Positions 2,778 to 20,093 are shown, counted from the stretch's first letter. The stretch: DNA of 33,956 nucleotides from an uncultured Lentisphaeria bacterium (GCA_964630195.1 CAZVSF010000005.1:1-33956); one strand, 5' to 3'. The notes: generated by a model not told the origin, from the sequence alone. Made by a program: numbers and translations.

Positions 2778-3614
2778 ATGGAACACGAAGCAAAATATTT
2801 GACCTACAAGGGACGTATCGTCTTTGGTAAGCAAACCATGCCATCCATTGATCGTATGCCTAAGGAATACAGTGAGAATGAAGCCTGCTTTGTTTTTATA
2901 AATCGTGGTGAAGTTTCTGTCCGAGCGCCTGATAAATATATAGCTCTGAATCAACAATCTGGGGTTCTGGCCAAATGCCTGAACTACTACTTCGAAACAA
3001 AACAGAAGAACCGAGCTGTTGATGAGGACATTGAGGCAATCGCAGTCTTGTTGTACCCGGGGATTTTGGAACAGCTCTTCGAATTTGATCTGGCTGAATC
3101 TGTCCATTCAATCAATTATGATATCAAGCAGGTCGTGATCAATGAGTTGTTGGAAAATTTCAAGAGAAGTGTCAGTCTCCTCATCGATCATCCAGAGCTA
3201 GCGGATGAAAAAATCATTGAGGCGAAGCTGAAAGAATTTGTGCTGCTCATGACAAAATCGCAGGAAATTTCTGATCTACATGAATTTTTGTCCAATCTCT
3301 TTAGTCCAGTCAATATTTCCTTTAAAACAGTCATCAGTCAAAATCTCTATGCAAATCTGTCCCTGGATGAACTGGCGAGATTATGTCACATGAGCACCTC
3401 TTCTTTCAAAAGGAAATTCAGGGAAGTGTATGACGAACCCCCGAAAAAATATATCTCCAGAAAGAAGATAGAAAAAGCTGCCCAGCTTTTAAGATCACAG
3501 AAGCAAAGAATATTTGACATCGCCTATGATGTTGGATTTGAATCTGTGGCCACCTTCAACAGGAATTTTACAAATACCTACGGAAAGAGCCCATCTGAAT
3601 ACCGATTGAGCTAA
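2778..3614 (+). CDS. AraC/XylS family transcriptional regulator
   Basis: C-terminal double HTH of the AraC type (LSLDELARLCHMSTSSFKRKFREVY...IFDIAYDVGFESVATFNRNFTNTYGKSPSEYR). The N-terminal ~170 aa form a ligand-domain-like region. GAGG-type RBS lies before the ATG. Confidence 0.9.
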   Translation: MEHEAKYLTYKGRIVFGKQTMPSIDRMPKEYSENEACFVFINRGEVSVRAPDKYIALNQQSGVLAKCLNYYFETKQKNRAVDEDIEAIAVLLYPGILEQLFEFDLAESVHSINYDIKQVVINELLENFKRSVSLLIDHPELADEKIIEAKLKEFVLLMTKSQEISDLHEFLSNLFSPVNISFKTVISQNLYANLSLDELARLCHMSTSSFKRKFREVYDEPPKKYISRKKIEKAAQLLRSQKQRIFDIAYDVGFESVATFNRNFTNTYGKSPSEYRLS

Positions 3615-3702: not shown

Positions 3703-4626
3703 ATGAATGAAACTATTTTAATCACAGGGGCTAATGCAGGTCTTGGGAAGGATGCTGCCAGACAGCTCGCACTATTAGATGAAACTAAAAAAATATATTT
3801 GGGTTGCAGAAATGAAACAAAGGCCCTGGCCGCAAAATCTGAACTGGAACAGGTAACGGGAAGATCCATCTTTGAGGTCATGATAGTGGATGTATCGAAG
3901 CCAGCATCAGTGCGCTCAGCCATCGCAAAATTAACCGAACCCATTGACGCATTAATTATGAATGCAGGTGGCATGGGTGGAAAAGCCCCGACTGAGTTAA
4001 CTCCAGATGGTGTTTCCAGTATCTTTGCTACTAATGTATTGGGACATGCCGTTATGGTTGACGCGTTGTTAAAGGCTGGGAAGCTGAAAAATGTTGCCAT
4101 GTATGCCAGTTCAGAAGGTGCCCGAGGTGTTAGGAAGATGGGAATGGCGCGACCCGAACTTAAATCAAATTCAGTCGATGAATTCGTTTCCATATTTAAT
4201 GGGAGTAATTTTGATGATAAGACTGACGGCATGGAGATTTATAGTTATGTCAAGTACGCTGCTACTTTATGGATGTCAGCCTTGGCCCGCAAACATCCAG
4301 ACGTGCGATTTATATCAATGAGCCCAGGGGCAACCAGCGGAACCCAGGTGATGAATGATTTGCCTACCATCCAAAAAATAATGTACAAGTATATTGGTTT
4401 CCCCATTTTGATGCCGTTGTTGGGAATGTCGCACAAGCTTGAGAAGGGCGCTCAGCGATATGTAAAGGCCATCAATGACAAATCATTGACCAGTGGGACC
4501 TTTTATGCAAGCGCAGAGAACAAACTGACTGGGTCCGTCATGGATCAGAGTAGCATTTTCCCTGATCTAAAAAATGAATCCTATCAAGAGAATGCCCTGG
4601 AGGCTATCAAGCGGTTTGCGGCTTAA
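3703..4626 (+). CDS. SDR family NAD(P)-dependent oxidoreductase
   Basis: N-terminal Rossmann motif TGANAGLG, an NAG motif (IMNAGGMG) and YxxxK (YSYVK). RBS aggaaagga lies upstream. Confidence 0.85.
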   Translation: MNETILITGANAGLGKDAARQLALLDETKKIYLGCRNETKALAAKSELEQVTGRSIFEVMIVDVSKPASVRSAIAKLTEPIDALIMNAGGMGGKAPTELTPDGVSSIFATNVLGHAVMVDALLKAGKLKNVAMYASSEGARGVRKMGMARPELKSNSVDEFVSIFNGSNFDDKTDGMEIYSYVKYAATLWMSALARKHPDVRFISMSPGATSGTQVMNDLPTIQKIMYKYIGFPILMPLLGMSHKLEKGAQRYVKAINDKSLTSGTFYASAENKLTGSVMDQSSIFPDLKNESYQENALEAIKRFAA

Positions 4627-4658: not shown

Positions 4659-4689
4659 GAAAGCCCCTGACCAAGATCAGGGGCTTTTA
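4659..4689. terminator. Bidirectional Rho-independent terminator between convergent SDR genes
   Basis: An 11-bp stem aaagcccctga / tcaggggcttt flanked by an A-run on one side and a T-run on the other. Confidence 0.8.
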
Positions 4690-4716: not shown

Positions 4717-5523
4717 TTAAGGTTCGTTTTTATCAATAGCACCTGAGACTTTACGGTGTAAAAATCCTTTAAAAAATGTATTTAGAAATGGGATCAAGCT
4801 TAATTTTTTAGGGATATAGATAGTCTTTTTGTCCTGCTCAATGGCCTGAATGATCTGGGCGACACAATCCTCAAGACTTACGGATTCATCAGTATGTTTC
4901 CGTGGGGATTGGACGGTACCTGATCCCTCGGGACCAAAAGCATTGTCTCTCAGGTTGGTCCCACGTATCCAGCTTAAAACAGCTTCAAGAATGGAGACGT
5001 CACCTCTGAGTTCCATATCAAGTGTTGCCAGAAACCCATGCAACGCATGCTTTGAGGCGACATAACCGGAGTGATTCGGGAAACCCATCAGGGCTTGTGC
5101 AGTTGAGCAACTCACGATCTTTCCACGGGACTGTTTGAGATGGGGGAGGGCTGCATGACAACAATTGACCGCCCCCAGGTAATTCACATCAACCAGATCT
5201 TTGAAAAACGAGATATCTTTGATGTCCTCAAATTTAGCCCACATGCTCACACCGGCATTCAGAACAAGTCCATCCACTTTTGAATAGCGCTCCAGGGTTT
5301 GCTGGACCAGGTTTTCACACGCTGACAGATCTGTGATATCGGTTTGAATTGCAACAGCGGAACCACCTGCGGTGGTGATGGCATTTGTCACACGTTCCAG
5401 CTCATCTATTCTGCGCGCTGCACATACAACCCTGGCACCTCTCTGGGCTAAAACCATGGACAGTTGTTCACCGATCCCAGATGAAGCCCCGGTCACGATA
5501 AAAACTTTTCCGTTTAAATTCAT
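4717..5523 (-). CDS. Classical SDR oxidoreductase, last gene of the lipid operon (candidate acyl/alkyl-DHAP reductase)
   Basis: TGASSGIG, NAG (LNAGVS) and a catalytic S...YxxxK (YVASK). GAGGAG RBS lies 8 nt before the ATG, which is 27 nt downstream of the AGPS-like stop. The functional assignment comes from operon context only. Confidence 0.85.
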   Translation of the reverse strand: MNLNGKVFIVTGASSGIGEQLSMVLAQRGARVVCAARRIDELERVTNAITTAGGSAVAIQTDITDLSACENLVQQTLERYSKVDGLVLNAGVSMWAKFEDIKDISFFKDLVDVNYLGAVNCCHAALPHLKQSRGKIVSCSTAQALMGFPNHSGYVASKHALHGFLATLDMELRGDVSILEAVLSWIRGTNLRDNAFGPEGSGTVQSPRKHTDESVSLEDCVAQIIQAIEQDKKTIYIPKKLSLIPFLNTFFKGFLHRKVSGAIDKNEP

Positions 5524-5550
5524 CCTGAGACTCCTCTAAAGAGCGAGGTG

Positions 5551-7320
5551 TTAATCAGAAAAAACGTTATTGCGGACACCAAAAATGTTCTTGGGGTCAT
5601 GCGAGGCTTTGATCTGCTTGATCAATTCAATACTTGTGGTTGAGATGGTACCTTTCATAAAATCCTTACGGAGCTTACCCACACCATGATGATGGGAGAT
5701 CGATCCACCGTTTTCCATGATGGCATCTCTCATGGCATGCTCCATCTCAGTGAAAATTTCAATGGGATTGCTGATGCCCTTCACATTGATGGCGAACATA
5801 AAATAGATACAAACCCCTGTATGGTAAATCTGCGGAACACGGTAGGATAGATATGGTTTCCCTGGGATGTTGTACTTTTTATGAAGCTCGGTCAGCTGTT
5901 TTTGAGCGGCTGCACATACCACATTGATCTTACTCCAGGGAACCGAGGTCTCCATGGTTTCACCAACGATATGGTACCTCGTCATGAAATCCCTGATATA
6001 GGCGATGGCAAAAGTCAGGTTGTAGCCCTTTTTGCCATTTTCGGACCCTCCGATGAGACCCTTATATTTTTTGGTCAATCGTTTGATCGTTTTTTGCTGG
6101 AAAGCCACTTCTTCCTTTGAGCCTTCTAATTTAAAGGAAGTCACAACCATCTTGTAAGGGTCAAACCCCTTCACATTTAGAACGAAAAACTTTTCAAGTT
6201 TCTTTGCCAGGACCTTCATCCCAGTCACTTTGGCATTCAAGGCCTGACCAAAACGGAATTGAGCATTATCCATGAGACGAGCGCTGGCTGGTACGGCTCC
6301 ACTTCTGGATAATTCATACATGAAGGCTACGGCAGTATCCCAATCATGGAAAAGTGCTGAATTGAAATCAGAGGCTTCAGGCAGTGTATAAACTTTTAAT
6401 GTGGCTTTGGTGATGATCCCAAAATTTCCTTCAGAACCAAGCAGAATGTTCTGAGGACTGACACCAATGGATGCCCGTGTCAGAGGCTCGATCTGTTCCA
6501 CCACACCCGTGGGCGTGATCATGGTTACATTTTCAACAATGTCTTCAATATTTCCGTAACGGTTTTTCTTCATTCCGCTGGCGTTTGTTGAGATCCACCC
6601 CCCCAGCGTTGACAATTCAATACTATCAGGTTCATGTCCAACGGTCAGACCTTGCGCTTCCAGGCGTTCTTCAAGCACACTTCCGGTAATACCTGCCTGG
6701 ACGACCACACGACGGTTTTCAACATCGATGGACTCAATGGCGTCCATACGGCGGGTATCTACAGCAACCACCATGCGATCTTCAACATCAGGGATCTGAA
6801 GGGCATTGCTGACGCTGGTTCCACCACCATAGGGGATCAGACATACATCGTGCTCGATGGCCAGTTCGATCAAACGTTTTGCTTCATCCTCTGATTCAAT
6901 GTAGAAGACCATGTCTGTGGCCCGGTCGATCTTTGCAAAGACCACTTTATAGACTTCATCAGTGGTCTGACCCTGACTATGAATGAGTCGCTCTTCGTCG
7001 CCAAAGGAATTGCGGTCTTCTGGGAATTCAGATTTGACCGATTCAACAAAGGCTTCATTAATCTTGGCGGCTTGTACAGGTTTATCTTCTGTTTCCGGTA
7101 GGACATCATTCACATCGATCTGCATATCCAACATCTCTTCAACATAAGGAATGAAGTCAGGCATTTCGATGCCACAAAGTTCATAGCGATCGCCGGTCAT
7201 ACTCACGGATCGGTCTTTATTCAGAAGAAATTCCGAATCGCGGAAGCCCCATTTGTAACCCCAGTTTTTATCATTAATTGCGTAAAATTTATCTTTGTTT
7301 GAACCCTTGTTATCGGTCAT
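5551..7320 (-). CDS. FAD-linked oxidase of the alkyl-dihydroxyacetonephosphate synthase (AGPS) type
   Basis: 589 aa. FAD_binding_4-type motif IPYGGGTSV. The C-terminal SHHHGVGKLRK (HHH codons at about nt 5686-5694) corresponds to the HHH loop characteristic of AGPS, not the GlcD/D-LDH relatives. An N-terminal extension of ~150 aa resembles AGPS. The start overlaps the upstream gene's stop (ATGACCGATAA). Confidence 0.85.
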   Translation of the reverse strand: MTDNKGSNKDKFYAINDKNWGYKWGFRDSEFLLNKDRSVSMTGDRYELCGIEMPDFIPYVEEMLDMQIDVNDVLPETEDKPVQAAKINEAFVESVKSEFPEDRNSFGDEERLIHSQGQTTDEVYKVVFAKIDRATDMVFYIESEDEAKRLIELAIEHDVCLIPYGGGTSVSNALQIPDVEDRMVVAVDTRRMDAIESIDVENRRVVVQAGITGSVLEERLEAQGLTVGHEPDSIELSTLGGWISTNASGMKKNRYGNIEDIVENVTMITPTGVVEQIEPLTRASIGVSPQNILLGSEGNFGIITKATLKVYTLPEASDFNSALFHDWDTAVAFMYELSRSGAVPASARLMDNAQFRFGQALNAKVTGMKVLAKKLEKFFVLNVKGFDPYKMVVTSFKLEGSKEEVAFQQKTIKRLTKKYKGLIGGSENGKKGYNLTFAIAYIRDFMTRYHIVGETMETSVPWSKINVVCAAAQKQLTELHKKYNIPGKPYLSYRVPQIYHTGVCIYFMFAINVKGISNPIEIFTEMEHAMRDAIMENGGSISHHHGVGKLRKDFMKGTISTTSIELIKQIKASHDPKNIFGVRNNVFSD

Positions 7321-8041
7321 AAAGTTCCAGTGCCTTTTTTGTAATAGCTGCTTCCAGTGCTGATGTCATTTTATTTGAGGCGGTGCTCAATTCATCTTCT
7401 CCTGGATTGTCAACGCCCAGGAAAGATTCCGGGTAAATCGGTTCAAGAATATAGACTTCAATGGCTGTGGGACGCATAAAAAATTTGCCCCTGGGCCAGG
7501 CTTTGTGTGAACCAAAAATAACTGCAGGTAAAATCGGGGCTTTCAGGTTTAATGAAAACCTTGCGGCACCCTTCTTAAAGGGCAAGATCTTGCCTGGTTC
7601 ACCACGCGTACCTTCAGGAAAAAAAATGAGGCTGCGCTGCTGGTATGCCATAAATGACTTGCATAGTTTTACTGTATCTTTGACGGGAAACTGGGTGACT
7701 CCATTTACTTTACGGTCAATAGGAATCAGGTTCATCACCGTATTGATCATCGTCCGTTTTGTCCAACTGTCAAACCAGTAGTCCTTGGCCGCCATCATGC
7801 CAAAATGATTAAAGCTCTTTTGTGCCGCTGCAGAAAGCAGGGCGACATCCATGTGACTATTGTGATTGCTGCAAAAAATGAACGATTCGTCTGGAATGTT
7901 TTCTCTGCCATGGACTTTCAGGGGGGTATAAAGGGTAAAGACCGTCTTACTGTAATAGTAGAATAAGATCTTCCAGATTTTATAGTAAAAGGGTTGTTTC
8001 CCGACCAGATAGCTGTATTTCGGATTGTCTAAAACATCCAT
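7310..8041 (-). CDS. Lysophospholipid/glycerol-phosphate-type acyltransferase (PlsC/GNPAT superfamily)
   Basis: Motif I NHNSHMDV (HX4D) and motif III FFPEGTRG. 243 aa. The start is 8 nt after the HMGR-like stop and the stop overlaps the AGPS-like start. Confidence 0.85.
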   Translation of the reverse strand: MDVLDNPKYSYLVGKQPFYYKIWKILFYYYSKTVFTLYTPLKVHGRENIPDESFIFCSNHNSHMDVALLSAAAQKSFNHFGMMAAKDYWFDSWTKRTMINTVMNLIPIDRKVNGVTQFPVKDTVKLCKSFMAYQQRSLIFFPEGTRGEPGKILPFKKGAARFSLNLKAPILPAVIFGSHKAWPRGKFFMRPTAIEVYILEPIYPESFLGVDNPGEDELSTASNKMTSALEAAITKKALELYDR

Positions 8042-8049
8042 GGGGCAGC

Positions 8050-9210
8050 CTATTTTCTGCCATATTTCATGTGGGCGTCTGTCCAGGTATGTGAGCCGAT
8101 GGCACAGATAAGCGATATCTCCAGTGCCAGGGTCGCGGCAGCAATAATTTCTGCCAGCTTCCTTGAGGCATGATCACCTTCAGCGCAACCCAACAACTCC
8201 AGGTTACGGTTCTGCATTTTCAGTCGTGTGCCGCCACCTATGGTCCCTACGGTGAGGGAGGGCAGGGTCAGTTTGAATTTGATGGCATCGTCCACCTTCT
8301 CCAGACCCAGATGAGCAATACTATTCTCAGCTGCACAGGCCGTATCCTGTCCAGTGGCGAGATAGATTGCTGTGAGTGCATTCGAAACGTGGAGTCCGTT
8401 ACCGTGCGTTCCAGCAAGGGATGATATCGTGGGGAAAAAGCTCCAGGAATCAAAAAGAATATCTGGATCCATTTTCAGGATGCGACGCATCACGCTGTTT
8501 TTTATGGTGGTTTCTGCTGAGACAGCATGTCCGCGACCTAAAAGCATATTTCTGGAAGAAGCCTTTTTATCACTGTTAAAGTTGGATTCCAGAAAATAAT
8601 TCTGATTGGTTTCTTTTTGAATGTATTCGCAGGCGATCTGGGCTGCCAGGGTGACCATATTTTGACCCGCTGCATTGCTGGTGTCCATGACCAGGTCCAG
8701 GACCACATAGTTTTGCATAGTGTATTGATCGATCCTCAACACCTTCCCATGTTTGGTGGTACTCTCTGCCACTGCTATGATCTTCTTTTCATTCTTCTTG
8801 ATCCACTGTTGAAATTCTGCACTCTCATTAATATCGCGTAGGATGAATACTGGAGCACGGGAGAGTTCCTGCCTGAAATGCCTGACGGTGGTGCCCCCGC
8901 TGATGGTGGAGGCATAAATCCCGCGATTCATGGAGGCTGCCAGCGTGCCCTCGAGAGTACAGAGTGGTACTAAAAAATCACCATTTGCATAGGTACCGTG
9001 AACCGTCATGGGTCCCACAACAGCCAGGGGGATTTTCATGGACCCGACATGCTGCTCAATGATCCCTTTTAGATCTTCAACATCATCTTCAAGTGTATCG
9101 TCAATTTCAACACCACTAAATTTTTTGACCCACTCCCTGCGAGCCTGGGAATCCTCTAAAGTGTAGCCGCGTGGAAGAGTGATGTTGCGCCCGTTATTTT
9201 GTTCAGACAT
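8050..9210 (-). CDS. Class I HMG-CoA reductase-like NAD(P)H oxidoreductase (soluble catalytic domain only)
   Basis: Collinear with my recollection of the human HMGR catalytic domain. TLEGTLAASMNRG aligns with TTEGCLVASTNRG, SDKK...GRG with TDKK...GRG, ATGQD with ACGQD, TVGTIGGGT with EIGTVGGGT, and DAHMKYGR with KSHMIHNR. The catalytic E, K, D and H all appear present. The DAMGMN motif is divergent (NAAGQN). Confidence 0.85.
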   Translation of the reverse strand: MSEQNNGRNITLPRGYTLEDSQARREWVKKFSGVEIDDTLEDDVEDLKGIIEQHVGSMKIPLAVVGPMTVHGTYANGDFLVPLCTLEGTLAASMNRGIYASTISGGTTVRHFRQELSRAPVFILRDINESAEFQQWIKKNEKKIIAVAESTTKHGKVLRIDQYTMQNYVVLDLVMDTSNAAGQNMVTLAAQIACEYIQKETNQNYFLESNFNSDKKASSRNMLLGRGHAVSAETTIKNSVMRRILKMDPDILFDSWSFFPTISSLAGTHGNGLHVSNALTAIYLATGQDTACAAENSIAHLGLEKVDDAIKFKLTLPSLTVGTIGGGTRLKMQNRNLELLGCAEGDHASRKLAEIIAAATLALEISLICAIGSHTWTDAHMKYGRK

Positions 9211-9529
9211 GGTTACCCCATTTATGTATTTTGAATATTAAAGTCTTATCCTGGTAGCGTATATATACTAAAAAAGATGATAAACACAATCACGAAATCA
9301 AATTCTTGAGACCACTTACACAAGGATATTCGGACAAAACAATTCTATAAATTATCCATCAATTTATCAATCCCAATGGAGAAATCCTTTAAATAATAAT
9401 TTCTCGAATAGGGGTCCCGGCGAAAACCGGTGTATCAACCAGCAGCATCACTTCCCATGCGTGATGGTCTTGAATATAAGCTAATGGTTCACACAGAATA
9501 TGAGCACAGAGGATAGTGGAGAACCCAGG

Positions 9530-19247: not shown

Positions 19248-20093
19248 ATGAGTAGTGTTGACGTTCAAGAGATCGATCTCATCCTGGGCCATCTCCAGGA
19301 GCAGACCGGATTGGATTTCTTTGGAAATTATTCTTCCATGATCGGCAGGCGTCTTCGAATCCGCATGTCAAAAACCGGGCAGCAATCATATCAGGACTAC
19401 TCGGTCTATCTTCAGCAAAATAATGATGAATTGGCAGAACTTCTTGATTCGCTTACCATAAGTGTGACCAGCTTTTATAGAGATCCATTTACATTTGAGT
19501 TTATTTATGAACATGTATTACCTCATATTTTTGAGGAAAAAGGAAAATCCCGAGATGCGACCTTGCGGATCTGGTGTGCCGGTTGTTCCACCGGTGAGGA
19601 AGCCTATTCCATGGCTATCCTGCTCAAAGAAATGAAGGAAAAACATCCGGATTCAAAGATCGCTCCGTCGATTTTTGCAACAGATATTGATCAACATGCT
19701 CTAGAAGCAGCACAAGCGGGTCGATATAACTTGAAAAGTGTGTGGAATGTGAAGCAGGGGCAAGTCAGCAAATATTTCAAGGTGCATGGCGAGAGCTTTG
19801 AGATAAACACTGAGATAAAGAAATTGGTGGAGTTTTCAACCTTTGATATGCTCAGCGATCTGACACTGGCGCCACCAGACAGTATATTTGGTGGGTTTGA
19901 TATTGTGCTCTGCCGGAATCTATTGATCTATTTTACAGCTGAATATCAGGTCAAGATCATGACCAAACTCTACGAATCTTTGAATCTTAATGGTGTATTG
20001 ATCCTGGGTAAAACAGAGAGACCTCTGGATCCGTACAAACTCAAATTTGTAGAAGAAAACTCACGTGCACGAATCTATAGAAAAGTCGTCTAG
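19248..20093 (+). CDS. cheR: CheR-type protein-glutamate O-methyltransferase
   Basis: CheR_N-like helix region and TSFYRDPFTFE (TxFFRD motif). SAM-binding RIWCAGCSTGEEAYSMAILL, plus FDIVLCRNLLIYF. 281 aa, the typical CheR length. Confidence 0.9.
   Translation: MSSVDVQEIDLILGHLQEQTGLDFFGNYSSMIGRRLRIRMSKTGQQSYQDYSVYLQQNNDELAELLDSLTISVTSFYRDPFTFEFIYEHVLPHIFEEKGKSRDATLRIWCAGCSTGEEAYSMAILLKEMKEKHPDSKIAPSIFATDIDQHALEAAQAGRYNLKSVWNVKQGQVSKYFKVHGESFEINTEIKKLVEFSTFDMLSDLTLAPPDSIFGGFDIVLCRNLLIYFTAEYQVKIMTKLYESLNLNGVLILGKTERPLDPYKLKFVEENSRARIYRKVV

Follow-up and report, generated by a model that had tools for sequence, protein, structure and literature searches.

On the minus strand of the window, by which we mean the entire 33,956-nt stretch of DNA that was analysed, ORF calling places four tightly packed genes between positions 9210 and 4717, transcribed in the order reductase, acyltransferase, AGPS and SDR. 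They encode a predicted fatty acyl-CoA reductase of the FcrA type (class-I HMGR-like; 8050–9210, 386 aa), a PlsC/AGPAT-type acyltransferase (AT; 7310–8041, 243 aa), an alkyl-dihydroxyacetone-phosphate synthase (AGPS; 5551–7320, 589 aa) and a classical SDR (4717–5523, 268 aa). The reductase and AT genes are separated by 8 nt (TAGgctgccccATG), the AT and AGPS genes overlap by 11 nt (a junction of -11 nt, reading ATGACCGATAA), and 27 nt lie between AGPS and the SDR, whose start codon is preceded by AGGAG. A first-pass annotation had described the same three junctions and the same four product families; the ORF calls and junction sequences agree with the former, and for the latter the HMM search that it had proposed returned Pfam domains that, together with the motifs, match all four proteins. 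The operon contains neither an acyl-CoA synthetase gene nor a desaturase gene.

Downstream, the operon and a convergent gene (3703–4626) have in common a G+C-rich hairpin terminator at 4659–4688, to which no strand is assigned and whose 12-pair stem includes 6 G-C pairs. The hairpin had been described as a strong bidirectional terminator at 4659–4689; its existence was borne out, but the terminator scan calls it, with its T-run, on the plus strand only. By eye, TTTCTTCG follows the G+C core on the minus strand, so bidirectional function is plausible. The upstream intergenic region (9211–9529, minus strand) is 319 nt long rather than the 320 nt first given, and matches no Rfam family. It holds a candidate sigma-70-like promoter at 9370–9342 (TTGATA-17-TAGAAT, 10/12 matches), although the total of such sites is no higher than in shuffled sequences, and alignment with the closest relative (L001) reveals conservation of the proximal ~100 nt, with a block around TATATATACGC.

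The host of the operon is a member of the Marinimicrobia (SAR406), an uncultured lineage of the FCB group. FcrA–AT–AGPS–SDR blocks of identical order and strand, with tight or overlapping junctions, occur in 24 complete species-representative Marinimicrobia loci, and on a 342-kb contig whose genes were called independently the block reappears, its junctions measuring 8, -8 and 25 nt, which upholds the earlier expectation of a neighbourhood conserved in relatives. These four families are the only ones shared when 28 Marinimicrobia-type sources are compared; no other neighbouring family is common to more than six loci. Since the four genes recur in 24 loci and no further family does so in more than six, the block is not a product of chance.

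The HMGR-like reductase and its displacement by classical FAR

The 386-aa protein matches Pfam HMG-CoA_red (PF00368, 2.5e-98) over residues 22–385, its best PDB match is an archaeal class-I HMGR (6HR7, 2.1e-72), and alignment reveals that the catalytic tetrad E559, K691, D767 and H866 (human HMGR numbering) is kept, as it is in all AGPS-linked Marinimicrobia homologues. The strength of the Pfam match, the intact tetrad and the public annotation of the protein as a hydroxymethylglutaryl-CoA reductase are what would be expected of a genuine HMGR of the mevalonate pathway, serving for example isoprenoid or archaeal-type lipids in the FCB group and adjoining AGPS only incidentally. We give this reading hardly any credence, because the protein differs from human HMGR at S684 (Glu), at L862 (Trp, within TWTDAH) and at the HMG-carboxylate-binding K735 (Phe), and scores under the cut-off of each of the two NCBIfam equivalog models for HMGR (269 vs 442 bits and 36 vs 260 bits). 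Nor does its setting favour the mevalonate pathway: no gene of that pathway lies in the 34-kb window, and none is conserved near the operon. In a neighbour-joining tree of 181 sequences, which had no class-II outgroup and in which a Lad-bearing homologue (L046) stood in as proxy for the characterised FcrA (N. pharaonis, P. breve), all HMGRs of the S/K/L type (human, Arabidopsis, Methanothermococcus) come together in a single split (44/50 bootstraps) and the 386-aa protein lies outside it, apart from these canonical enzymes. The proxy, from a member of the Chloroflexota (Anaerolineae), is ~39% identical to our protein.

The same substitutions characterise FcrA, a fatty acyl-CoA reductase derived from class-I HMGR that was found through wax-ester synthesis (Grossi et al. 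2025, ISME J; PMC11948995). [quoted passage not shown] We take the 'Lys795' printed in that paper to be Lys735 because of its offset from N. pharaonis Gly411. An enzyme of this type is further expected to be insensitive to statins, to group in a monophyletic FcrA clade apart from canonical HMGR and to come from a genome without the rest of the mevalonate pathway. Published FcrA and the 386-aa protein thus have in common the HMG-CoA_red fold, the E/K/D/H tetrad, an acidic residue at 684, a residue other than Lys at 735 and a bulky aromatic one at 862. Among the locus homologues position 862 is Trp or Phe in 24/24 compared, position 684 is E or D, and position 735 is F, Y, L, M, V, I or Q. The window protein differs in consisting of the core only, whereas some FcrA carry an N-terminal Lad domain or an ACP domain, and in having NAAGQN instead of the DAMGMN motif. 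On these sequence grounds we propose that it is an FcrA-type reductase and not an enzyme of the mevalonate pathway, and that it would supply long-chain fatty alcohol.

The strongest evidence for such a role is that FcrA is displaced non-orthologously by FAR. In one related genome (locus L050) a classical FAR (NAD_binding_4 8e-65, plus Sterile) occupies the FcrA slot and overlaps the start of the AT gene, while a sister locus (L052), whose AGPS is 70% identical, has FcrA in that slot; this exchange speaks against a genuine HMG-CoA reductase. In two further genomes (L010 and L013) a 1,407-aa fusion of FAR, AMP-binding, ACP and AT domains (FAR–ACS–ACP–AT) lies directly upstream of AGPS–SDR and replaces both FcrA and AT. 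The FcrA substitutions, the FAR in the same slot and the FAR-containing fusions together support the initial view of the operon as an ether-lipid cassette in which an HMGR-like protein takes the FAR role. The accompanying description of that protein as an unexpected enzyme family has been overtaken: the 2025 paper on FcrA showed it to reduce fatty acyl-CoA, and its authors already proposed that, alongside PlsC-like and AGPS genes, FcrA takes part in making ether lipids (PMC11948995).

The alkyl-DHAP synthase and its partner enzymes

The 589-aa protein is, judged by its sequence, a true AGPS (EC 2.5.1.26). It comprises FAD_binding_4 (2.4e-34) and FAD-oxidase_C (2.6e-35) domains, carries the HHHGVGKLR motif and is 39% identical to guinea-pig AGPS, which phmmer matches against PDB at 2.4e-139 over query residues 23–584 (4BBY), followed by Dictyostelium AGPS (2UUU, 5.5e-78). 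As the first pass had anticipated, the protein is an AGPS rather than a GlcD or D-LDH, which are ruled out: the best non-AGPS match, of the LctD/D-LDH type, reaches 2.4e-24 and covers the FAD domain only, against 2.4e-139 for AGPS over the full length, N-terminal domain included. In an alignment that includes guinea-pig AGPS, the invariant residues T238, R348, Y506 and H543-545 correspond to guinea-pig T309, R419, Y578 and H615-617. Arg419, Tyr578 and the His615-617 loop are active-site residues of AGPS, considered here together with Thr309; the PDB matches include the AGPS mutant entries 4BCA (Y578F) and 4BC7 (R419H), and the Tyr578 position shows up as the single Y/F difference between two PDB alignments. 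AGPS homologues in Marinisomatota have been surveyed previously.

The 243-aa AT (Pfam Acyltransferase PF01553, 2.4e-23) displays the HX4D (H-NSHM-D), IPIDR, FPEGTR and PILPAV blocks, of which HX4D and FPEGTR define the superfamily only. From its context we read this PlsC/AGPAT-type enzyme as one that probably acylates DHAP. It might instead be a dedicated sn-2 acyltransferase for 1-alkyl-G3P (or lyso-PA) in an otherwise identical pathway, with acyl-DHAP coming from an enzyme encoded elsewhere: among solved structures the nearest to it is that of Thermotoga PlsC (5KYM, 1.7e-16), which is a 1-acyl-G3P acyltransferase, and its NCBIfam matches are of the AGPAT type, all of them under cut-off. We regard this reassignment as unlikely. 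Outside FAR–AT fusions, bacteria are not known to have a candidate DHAP acyltransferase, and the reassignment sits poorly with the translational overlap of AT and AGPS in most loci; AT lies immediately upstream of AGPS in 28/28 Marinimicrobia-type sources. The nearest relatives of the AT outside Marinimicrobia among the fetched loci adjoin AGPS (L039, 109 bits; L035, 108 bits; the L013 fusion, 99 bits); for a second AT in L045, which is unlinked, the score is 60 bits. A further argument against an sn-2 enzyme is that the AT and the AT domain found in FAR–AT-type fusions can take each other's place; one such fusion adjoins the AGPS gene in M. xanthus, and another, Tetrahymena FARAT, reportedly unites FAR and GNPAT in a single bifunctional protein (PMC13012113). 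DHAP acylation remains our preferred role for the AT.

The 268-aa SDR matches adh_short (Pfam, 8.7e-46) and NCBIfam PRK06181 (241 bits, over the 215-bit cut-off), and its translation contains TGASSGIG and YVASK, the latter being the catalytic Tyr-x3-Lys motif; an Arg-Arg pair past strand β2 (VVCAARR) suggests that it uses NADP(H). In the PDB it hits clavaldehyde dehydrogenase, FabG and 11β-HSD1, all of them generic matches, and the family searches assign it to no specific function. A homologue of 39–79% identity is the next gene after AGPS in the Marinimicrobia loci, as well as in L010 and L013, and again in 15 loci whose labels read Acidobacteriota, Chloroflexota-lineage (Caldilineaceae/Chloroflexia) or Planctomycetota (Thermoguttaceae), so that the AGPS–SDR pairing extends to at least three further phyla, in loci without FcrA nearby. 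From this adjacency across phyla we propose that the SDR is an NADPH-dependent acyl/alkyl-DHAP reductase (EC 1.1.1.101), the activity of DHRS7B/PexRAP and Ayr1.

A predicted ether-lipid cassette in Marinimicrobia

Taken together, we consider it likely that the operon is a self-contained cassette that makes 1-O-alkyl-sn-glycerol-3-phosphate, from which plasmanyl (alkyl-acyl) ether phospholipids derive, by the animal-type AGPS route. The FcrA-type reductase would convert long-chain acyl-CoA to fatty alcohol at the expense of 2 NADPH; the chemistry of HMGR is likewise a four-electron reduction of a thioester to an alcohol. The PlsC-type AT would convert DHAP to 1-acyl-DHAP, whose acyl group AGPS, a flavoenzyme with no net use of O2, would exchange for the alcohol to yield 1-O-alkyl-DHAP, and the SDR would then reduce the ketone of this product with NADPH to 1-O-alkyl-G3P. 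Housekeeping enzymes would afterwards add an sn-2 acyl chain and a head group. As a desaturase is absent, we expect the ethers to be of the alkyl and not of the vinyl kind. In this scheme the final lipid, and the substrates on which FcrA, AT and SDR would act, are those that we infer for the operon.

A product destined for elsewhere than the membrane (free fatty alcohols, storage lipids of the wax type, or an alkylglycerol that acts as a signal), or the salvage or degradation of exogenous ether lipids, in place of bulk ether phospholipids for the membrane, could be argued from the discovery of FcrA in wax-ester synthesis and from the life of Marinimicrobia on particulate organic matter. Such outcomes seem to us quite improbable, given that WS/DGAT genes are not among the families conserved with the block, that AGPS and a ketoreductase specifically give alkyl-G3P, the entry point to phospholipids, and that the reductases of the operon appear to be of the NADPH-type biosynthetic kind.

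The animal peroxisomal ether-lipid pathway employs FAR1/2, GNPAT, AGPS and DHRS7B/PexRAP. The four activities predicted here are the same and the AGPS enzymes are homologous, with 39% identity and the catalytic residues kept, but the predicted FAR of the window is not a homologue of FAR1/2, the AT resembles the small PlsC type rather than GNPAT, the genes are arranged as an operon and a PEDS1 desaturase was not observed. Myxococcus xanthus follows the same pathway logic in its AGPS operon MXAN_1676-1675-1674, which brings FAR and acyltransferase functions and a reductase-type gene dependent on NAD(P) together with AGPS (Lorenzen et al. 2014; PMC13012113); there a classical NAD_binding_4 FAR is fused to the AT (PMC13012113), whereas the window has a separate, HMGR-derived putative FAR, a standalone AT and a classical SDR. 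With the multidomain enzymes of the ElbD type (elb cluster) the window shares the placing of FAR and AT functions beside AGPS–SDR, an arrangement also present in L010, L013, L062 and L066; it differs from them in lacking an AMP-binding module, an ACP module and an NAD_binding_4 reductase. Published FcrA genes are linked to wax esters, lie nine genes from AGPS (P. breve) or stand beside a PlsC-like gene only (Coxiella) (PMC11948995), in contrast to the window gene, which is coupled translationally to AT–AGPS–SDR. We found no paper describing a tight FcrA–AT–AGPS–SDR operon; with FcrA already characterised and AGPS homologues of Marinisomatota already surveyed, the novelty claimed earlier was nevertheless overstated. 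Because the HMGR-like reductase type was described in 2025, the operon represents known parts newly arranged and not a new pathway.

Where the ocean is dark and poor in oxygen, Marinimicrobia (SAR406) rank with the most abundant bacteria. We put forward tentatively, as something short of probable, that they may routinely build 1-O-alkyl ether phospholipids by means of the O2-independent FcrA–AT–AGPS–SDR operon and that much of the non-isoprenoid alkylglycerol ethers known from sea water and sediments may therefore come from them, as a major source that has gone unrecognised. If this is true, a primary role of FcrA in bacteria would be to provide the alcohol for ether lipids rather than for wax esters.

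Layout and surroundings of the operon

Four consecutive open reading frames on the minus strand, recovered by ORF calling as the first-pass annotation had described them, make up the operon. They encode a homologue of HMG-CoA reductase (HMGR) of the fatty acyl-CoA reductase type FcrA (9210-8050, 386 aa; Pfam HMG-CoA_red, 2.5e-98), a PlsC-type acyltransferase (AT; 8041-7310, 243 aa; Acyltransferase, 2.4e-23), a flavoenzyme identified below as alkyl-dihydroxyacetone-phosphate synthase (AGPS; 7320-5551, 589 aa; FAD_binding_4, 2.4e-34, and FAD-oxidase_C, 2.6e-35) and an SDR (5523-4717, 268 aa; adh_short, 8.7e-46), so that each product matches the Pfam family expected for it. The junctions are also as first described: 8 nt between FcrA and AT (TAGgctgccccATG), an 11-nt overlap of AT and AGPS (ATGACCGATAA) and 27 nt between AGPS and SDR, where AGGAG precedes the SDR start codon.

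The operon is preceded by a spacer of 319 nt and followed, 28 nt 3' of the SDR stop codon, by a G+C-rich hairpin of 12 pairs (4659-4688) that it shares with the convergent gene. This hairpin is the sole convincing element from the promoter and terminator scans, in which site counts did not exceed those in shuffled sequences, and Rfam gave no matches at E≤0.1 to a regulatory RNA in or 5' of the operon. Compared with the closest relative, locus L001, about 100 nt 5' of the operon start codon (9211-9320) are well conserved, centring on TATATATACGC...GGGTAA, and the distal part of the spacer is not; the conserved stretch may act as a promoter or as part of a 5' UTR.

The closest database proteins are 85-92% identical and belong to MAGs, most of them of marine metagenomic origin, that carry the labels Candidatus Marinimicrobia, Neomarinimicrobiota or FCB group. 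Outside the operon the window encodes a Fic/DOC-family protein with a Fic_N domain (444-1616), an AraC-family regulator (2778-3614) and a second, divergent SDR (3703-4626), both of which converge on the operon terminator, a cation/proton-antiporter-like protein, and PAS sensor kinases with response regulators; no isoprenoid or other lipid genes were found there. Some 20 kb (11857-33552) are an unusually dense run of mostly signalling genes, including at least eight PAS, GAF or TPR sensor histidine kinases, response regulators and a CheR methyltransferase (19248-20093).

Identity of the flavoenzyme and the reductase

In a phmmer search against all PDB sequences, guinea-pig AGPS matches residues 23-584 of the 589-aa protein at 2.4e-139 and the Dictyostelium enzyme follows at 5.5e-78, whereas the best non-AGPS match, a lactate-dehydrogenase subunit, reaches 2.4e-24 over the FAD domain only. 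The 589-aa protein is 39% identical to guinea-pig AGPS, and T238, R348, Y506 and H543-H545, which correspond to guinea-pig Thr309, Arg419, Tyr578 and the His615-617 loop, are invariant in an alignment that includes the guinea-pig enzyme. By these matches the flavoenzyme is assigned as AGPS. The PDB searches rule out GlcD or D-lactate dehydrogenase, among which the protein did not fall; such a placement had been named as the result that would overturn the AGPS claim.

FcrA denotes a clade of class-I HMGR homologues that convert acyl-CoA of C14 and longer to fatty alcohol with NADPH, do not reduce HMG-CoA and are not inhibited by simvastatin (Grossi et al., ISME J 2025, PMC11948995). Diagnostic for the clade are the retention of Glu559, Lys691, Asp767 and His866, a bulky residue in place of Leu862, and the replacement of Ser684 (Glu in N. 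pharaonis) and of the HMG-binding lysine (PMC11948995). The latter is printed as 'Lys795' (PMC11948995); the residue offset in N. pharaonis (Glu360 for Ser684, Lys367 for Lys691, and Gly411) shows that Lys735 is meant. Aligned with human HMGR, the window protein retains all four catalytic residues and has Glu, Phe and Trp at positions 684, 735 and 862, respectively; in each of the 24 homologues linked to AGPS in other genomes, position 684 is E or D, 735 is not Lys and 862 is W or F. Its scores against the two NCBIfam HMGR equivalog models also fall far short of the cut-offs. In a neighbour-joining tree of 181 homologues, a set without the characterised FcrA sequences, the canonical HMGRs with the S/K/L pattern, including those of human, Arabidopsis and Methanothermococcus, form one split in 44 of 50 bootstraps, and the window protein lies on the opposite side. 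Judged by its sequence, the protein belongs to the fatty acyl-CoA reductases of the FcrA type, and a canonical HMGR of the mevalonate pathway is ruled out by the signature residues, the NCBIfam scores below threshold, the position in the tree and the displacement by a classical fatty acyl-CoA reductase (FAR) described below. Public records annotate these genes as hydroxymethylglutaryl-CoA reductase, a label that could lead to FCB-group bacteria being wrongly credited with a mevalonate pathway; the operon corrects this annotation.

The active site of HMGR lies at the oligomer interface. Where HMGRs have DAMGMN, the window protein reads NAAGQN (approximately residues 178-183), and this change of Asp to Asn is found in all Marinimicrobia AGPS-linked homologues except that of locus L052, which has Glu. 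The window protein is without the optional N-terminal Lad domain; an Anaerolineae homologue (L046) has the domain and retains the Asp.

Conservation of the operon and exchanges in the reductase slot

A scan with AGPS-conserved peptides across one genome per GTDB species yielded 566 stretches confirmed to encode AGPS, and the analysis went on with the best 80 of them. Among these 80, 24 are complete Marinimicrobia-type loci with the order FcrA–AT–AGPS–SDR on one strand and junctions mostly of 0-12 nt or overlapping, bearing out the conservation of gene order in relatives; two more (L003 and L015) show AT–AGPS–SDR with the upstream part cut off by the contig end. On a 342-kb JGI contig, independent gene calls recover this quartet of Pfam types, spaced by 8, -8 and 25 nt. 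When all ORFs of the 27 Marinimicrobia-type loci and the window were clustered (28 sources), AT, AGPS and SDR occurred in 28/28 and FcrA in 25/28, and the next commonest family in 6/28; no desaturase, head-group enzyme, acyl-CoA synthetase or wax synthase emerged as a conserved partner. The Na+/H+-exchanger-like gene, AraC regulator and second SDR that flank the window's operon are not conserved with the block in these sources, and the latter two are left out of the operon on this account. The operon is genuine and its conservation strong, and as only its four families are shared it constitutes a discrete module in variable surroundings.

The remaining loci include 51 from other phyla. In 15 of these, labelled Acidobacteriota, Chloroflexota-lineage (Caldilineaceae/Chloroflexia) or Planctomycetota (Thermoguttaceae), an SDR homologue of 39-45% identity lies directly 3' of AGPS with no FcrA nearby, which links the SDR with AGPS and not with the reductase. 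The protein is a classical SDR (TGASSGIG, YVASK), and the Arg-Arg after β2 suggests a preference for NADP(H). A search for a specific functional family assigned none; the pairing with AGPS fits a putative role in the alkyl-DHAP ketoreductase step.

The strongest functional evidence comes from exchanges in the slot 5' of AT. In L050 (Neomarinimicrobiota TS1B10-1), the one complete locus of the 27 Marinimicrobia-type loci that has no FcrA, this slot is occupied by a 563-aa classical FAR (L050:5100-6791, plus strand; NAD_binding_4, 8e-65, and Sterile) that is not an HMGR homologue and overlaps the AT start codon, the rest of the operon following at L050:6778-10223. In the sister locus L052, with 70% identity in AGPS, the slot holds FcrA; going by the domain content, this is a non-orthologous gene displacement within one operon. 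In two further loci (L010:2417-6637 and L013:5753-9976) a 1,407-aa FAR–Sterile–AMP-binding–ACP–AT fusion stands directly 5' of AGPS–SDR in place of both FcrA and AT, with a domain content like that of ElbD. In M. xanthus a FAR–AT fusion adjoins the AGPS gene, and Tetrahymena FARAT is reported to have been shown experimentally to be a bifunctional FAR–GNPAT fusion (PMC13012113). The swaps between FcrA, FAR and the FAR fusion amount to a genetic complementation experiment run by evolution, and the displacements argue that the alcohol comes from FcrA and the acyl-DHAP from AT. The main internal uncertainty of the reading lies here, since AT might instead act at sn-2 rather than on DHAP. L013 is labelled Poribacteria, yet its AGPS is 61% identical to that of the window.

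Two further observations concern the history of the genes. FcrA (73-82% identity) groups the window, L001 and L002 with L030, L044 and L045, whereas AGPS places the same three nearer to L004/L005/L008 (65-67%) than to L030, L044 and L045 (55-57%). This incongruence, from comparison of window 5551-7320 and 8050-9210 with L030, L044, L045, L060, L043 and L049, suggests that AGPS has recombined or been replaced within the operon, or else that its lineage has evolved at a strongly accelerated rate. In two Chloroflexota-lineage genomes an FcrA homologue lies 1.5-3 kb 5' of AGPS without AT or SDR: L046:3605-5149, with a Pfam HMG-CoA_red_N (Lad) domain, and L029:6856-8399 (labelled Chloroflexota), apparently split into two ORFs. 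This loose linkage resembles that in Ca. Promineifilum breve, where the AGPS gene is nine genes from fcrA (PMC11948995).

Proposed pathway and significance

In the proposed pathway FcrA would reduce acyl-CoA to fatty alcohol, AT would acylate DHAP from an acyl donor to acyl-DHAP, AGPS would exchange the acyl chain for the alcohol to give alkyl-DHAP and fatty acid, and the SDR would reduce alkyl-DHAP with NADPH to 1-O-alkyl-G3P. None of the four steps would require O2; the flavin of AGPS cycles with zero net O2 consumed. In the 28 clustered sources no desaturase of the PEDS1/CarF type accompanies the block, and saturated alkyl ethers would consequently be expected rather than plasmalogens. We regard this pathway reading as a whole as probable. 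That the operon is an ether-lipid cassette, as the first-pass annotation proposed, is very probably right given the AGPS identity, the FcrA signatures, the conserved operon and the slot swaps.

The earlier description of the reductase as an unexpected enzyme family is out of date, as FcrA has been published as a FAR and a contribution of some FcrA to ether-lipid synthesis already suggested, from loose co-occurrence only; in Coxiella, a PlsC-like gene adjoins fcrA (PMC11948995). The operon is on these grounds a variant of a known pathway, and its novelty is the non-orthologous replacement of FAR within a bacterial AGPS cluster, not a new kind of system. The supplement text of Grossi et al. mentions neither Marinimicrobia nor AGPS, and a survey without gene-context analysis reported Agps homologues in 49 of 134 Black Sea Marinisomatota MAGs (PMC11868695). 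Our literature search found no description of the FcrA–AT–AGPS–SDR operon, in keeping with the view that the gene combination was uncharacterised, no follow-up work on FcrA and no link between SAR406 and alkylglycerol ethers. The operon provides the clearest genomic evidence we have found in support of FcrA acting in ether-lipid synthesis, and at 4.5 kb the cassette is compact enough for expression in E. coli. It would give an abundant uncultured ocean phylum a complete O2-independent route to ether lipids and predicts their presence there, a capacity that bears on how alkylglycerol ether biomarkers are read.
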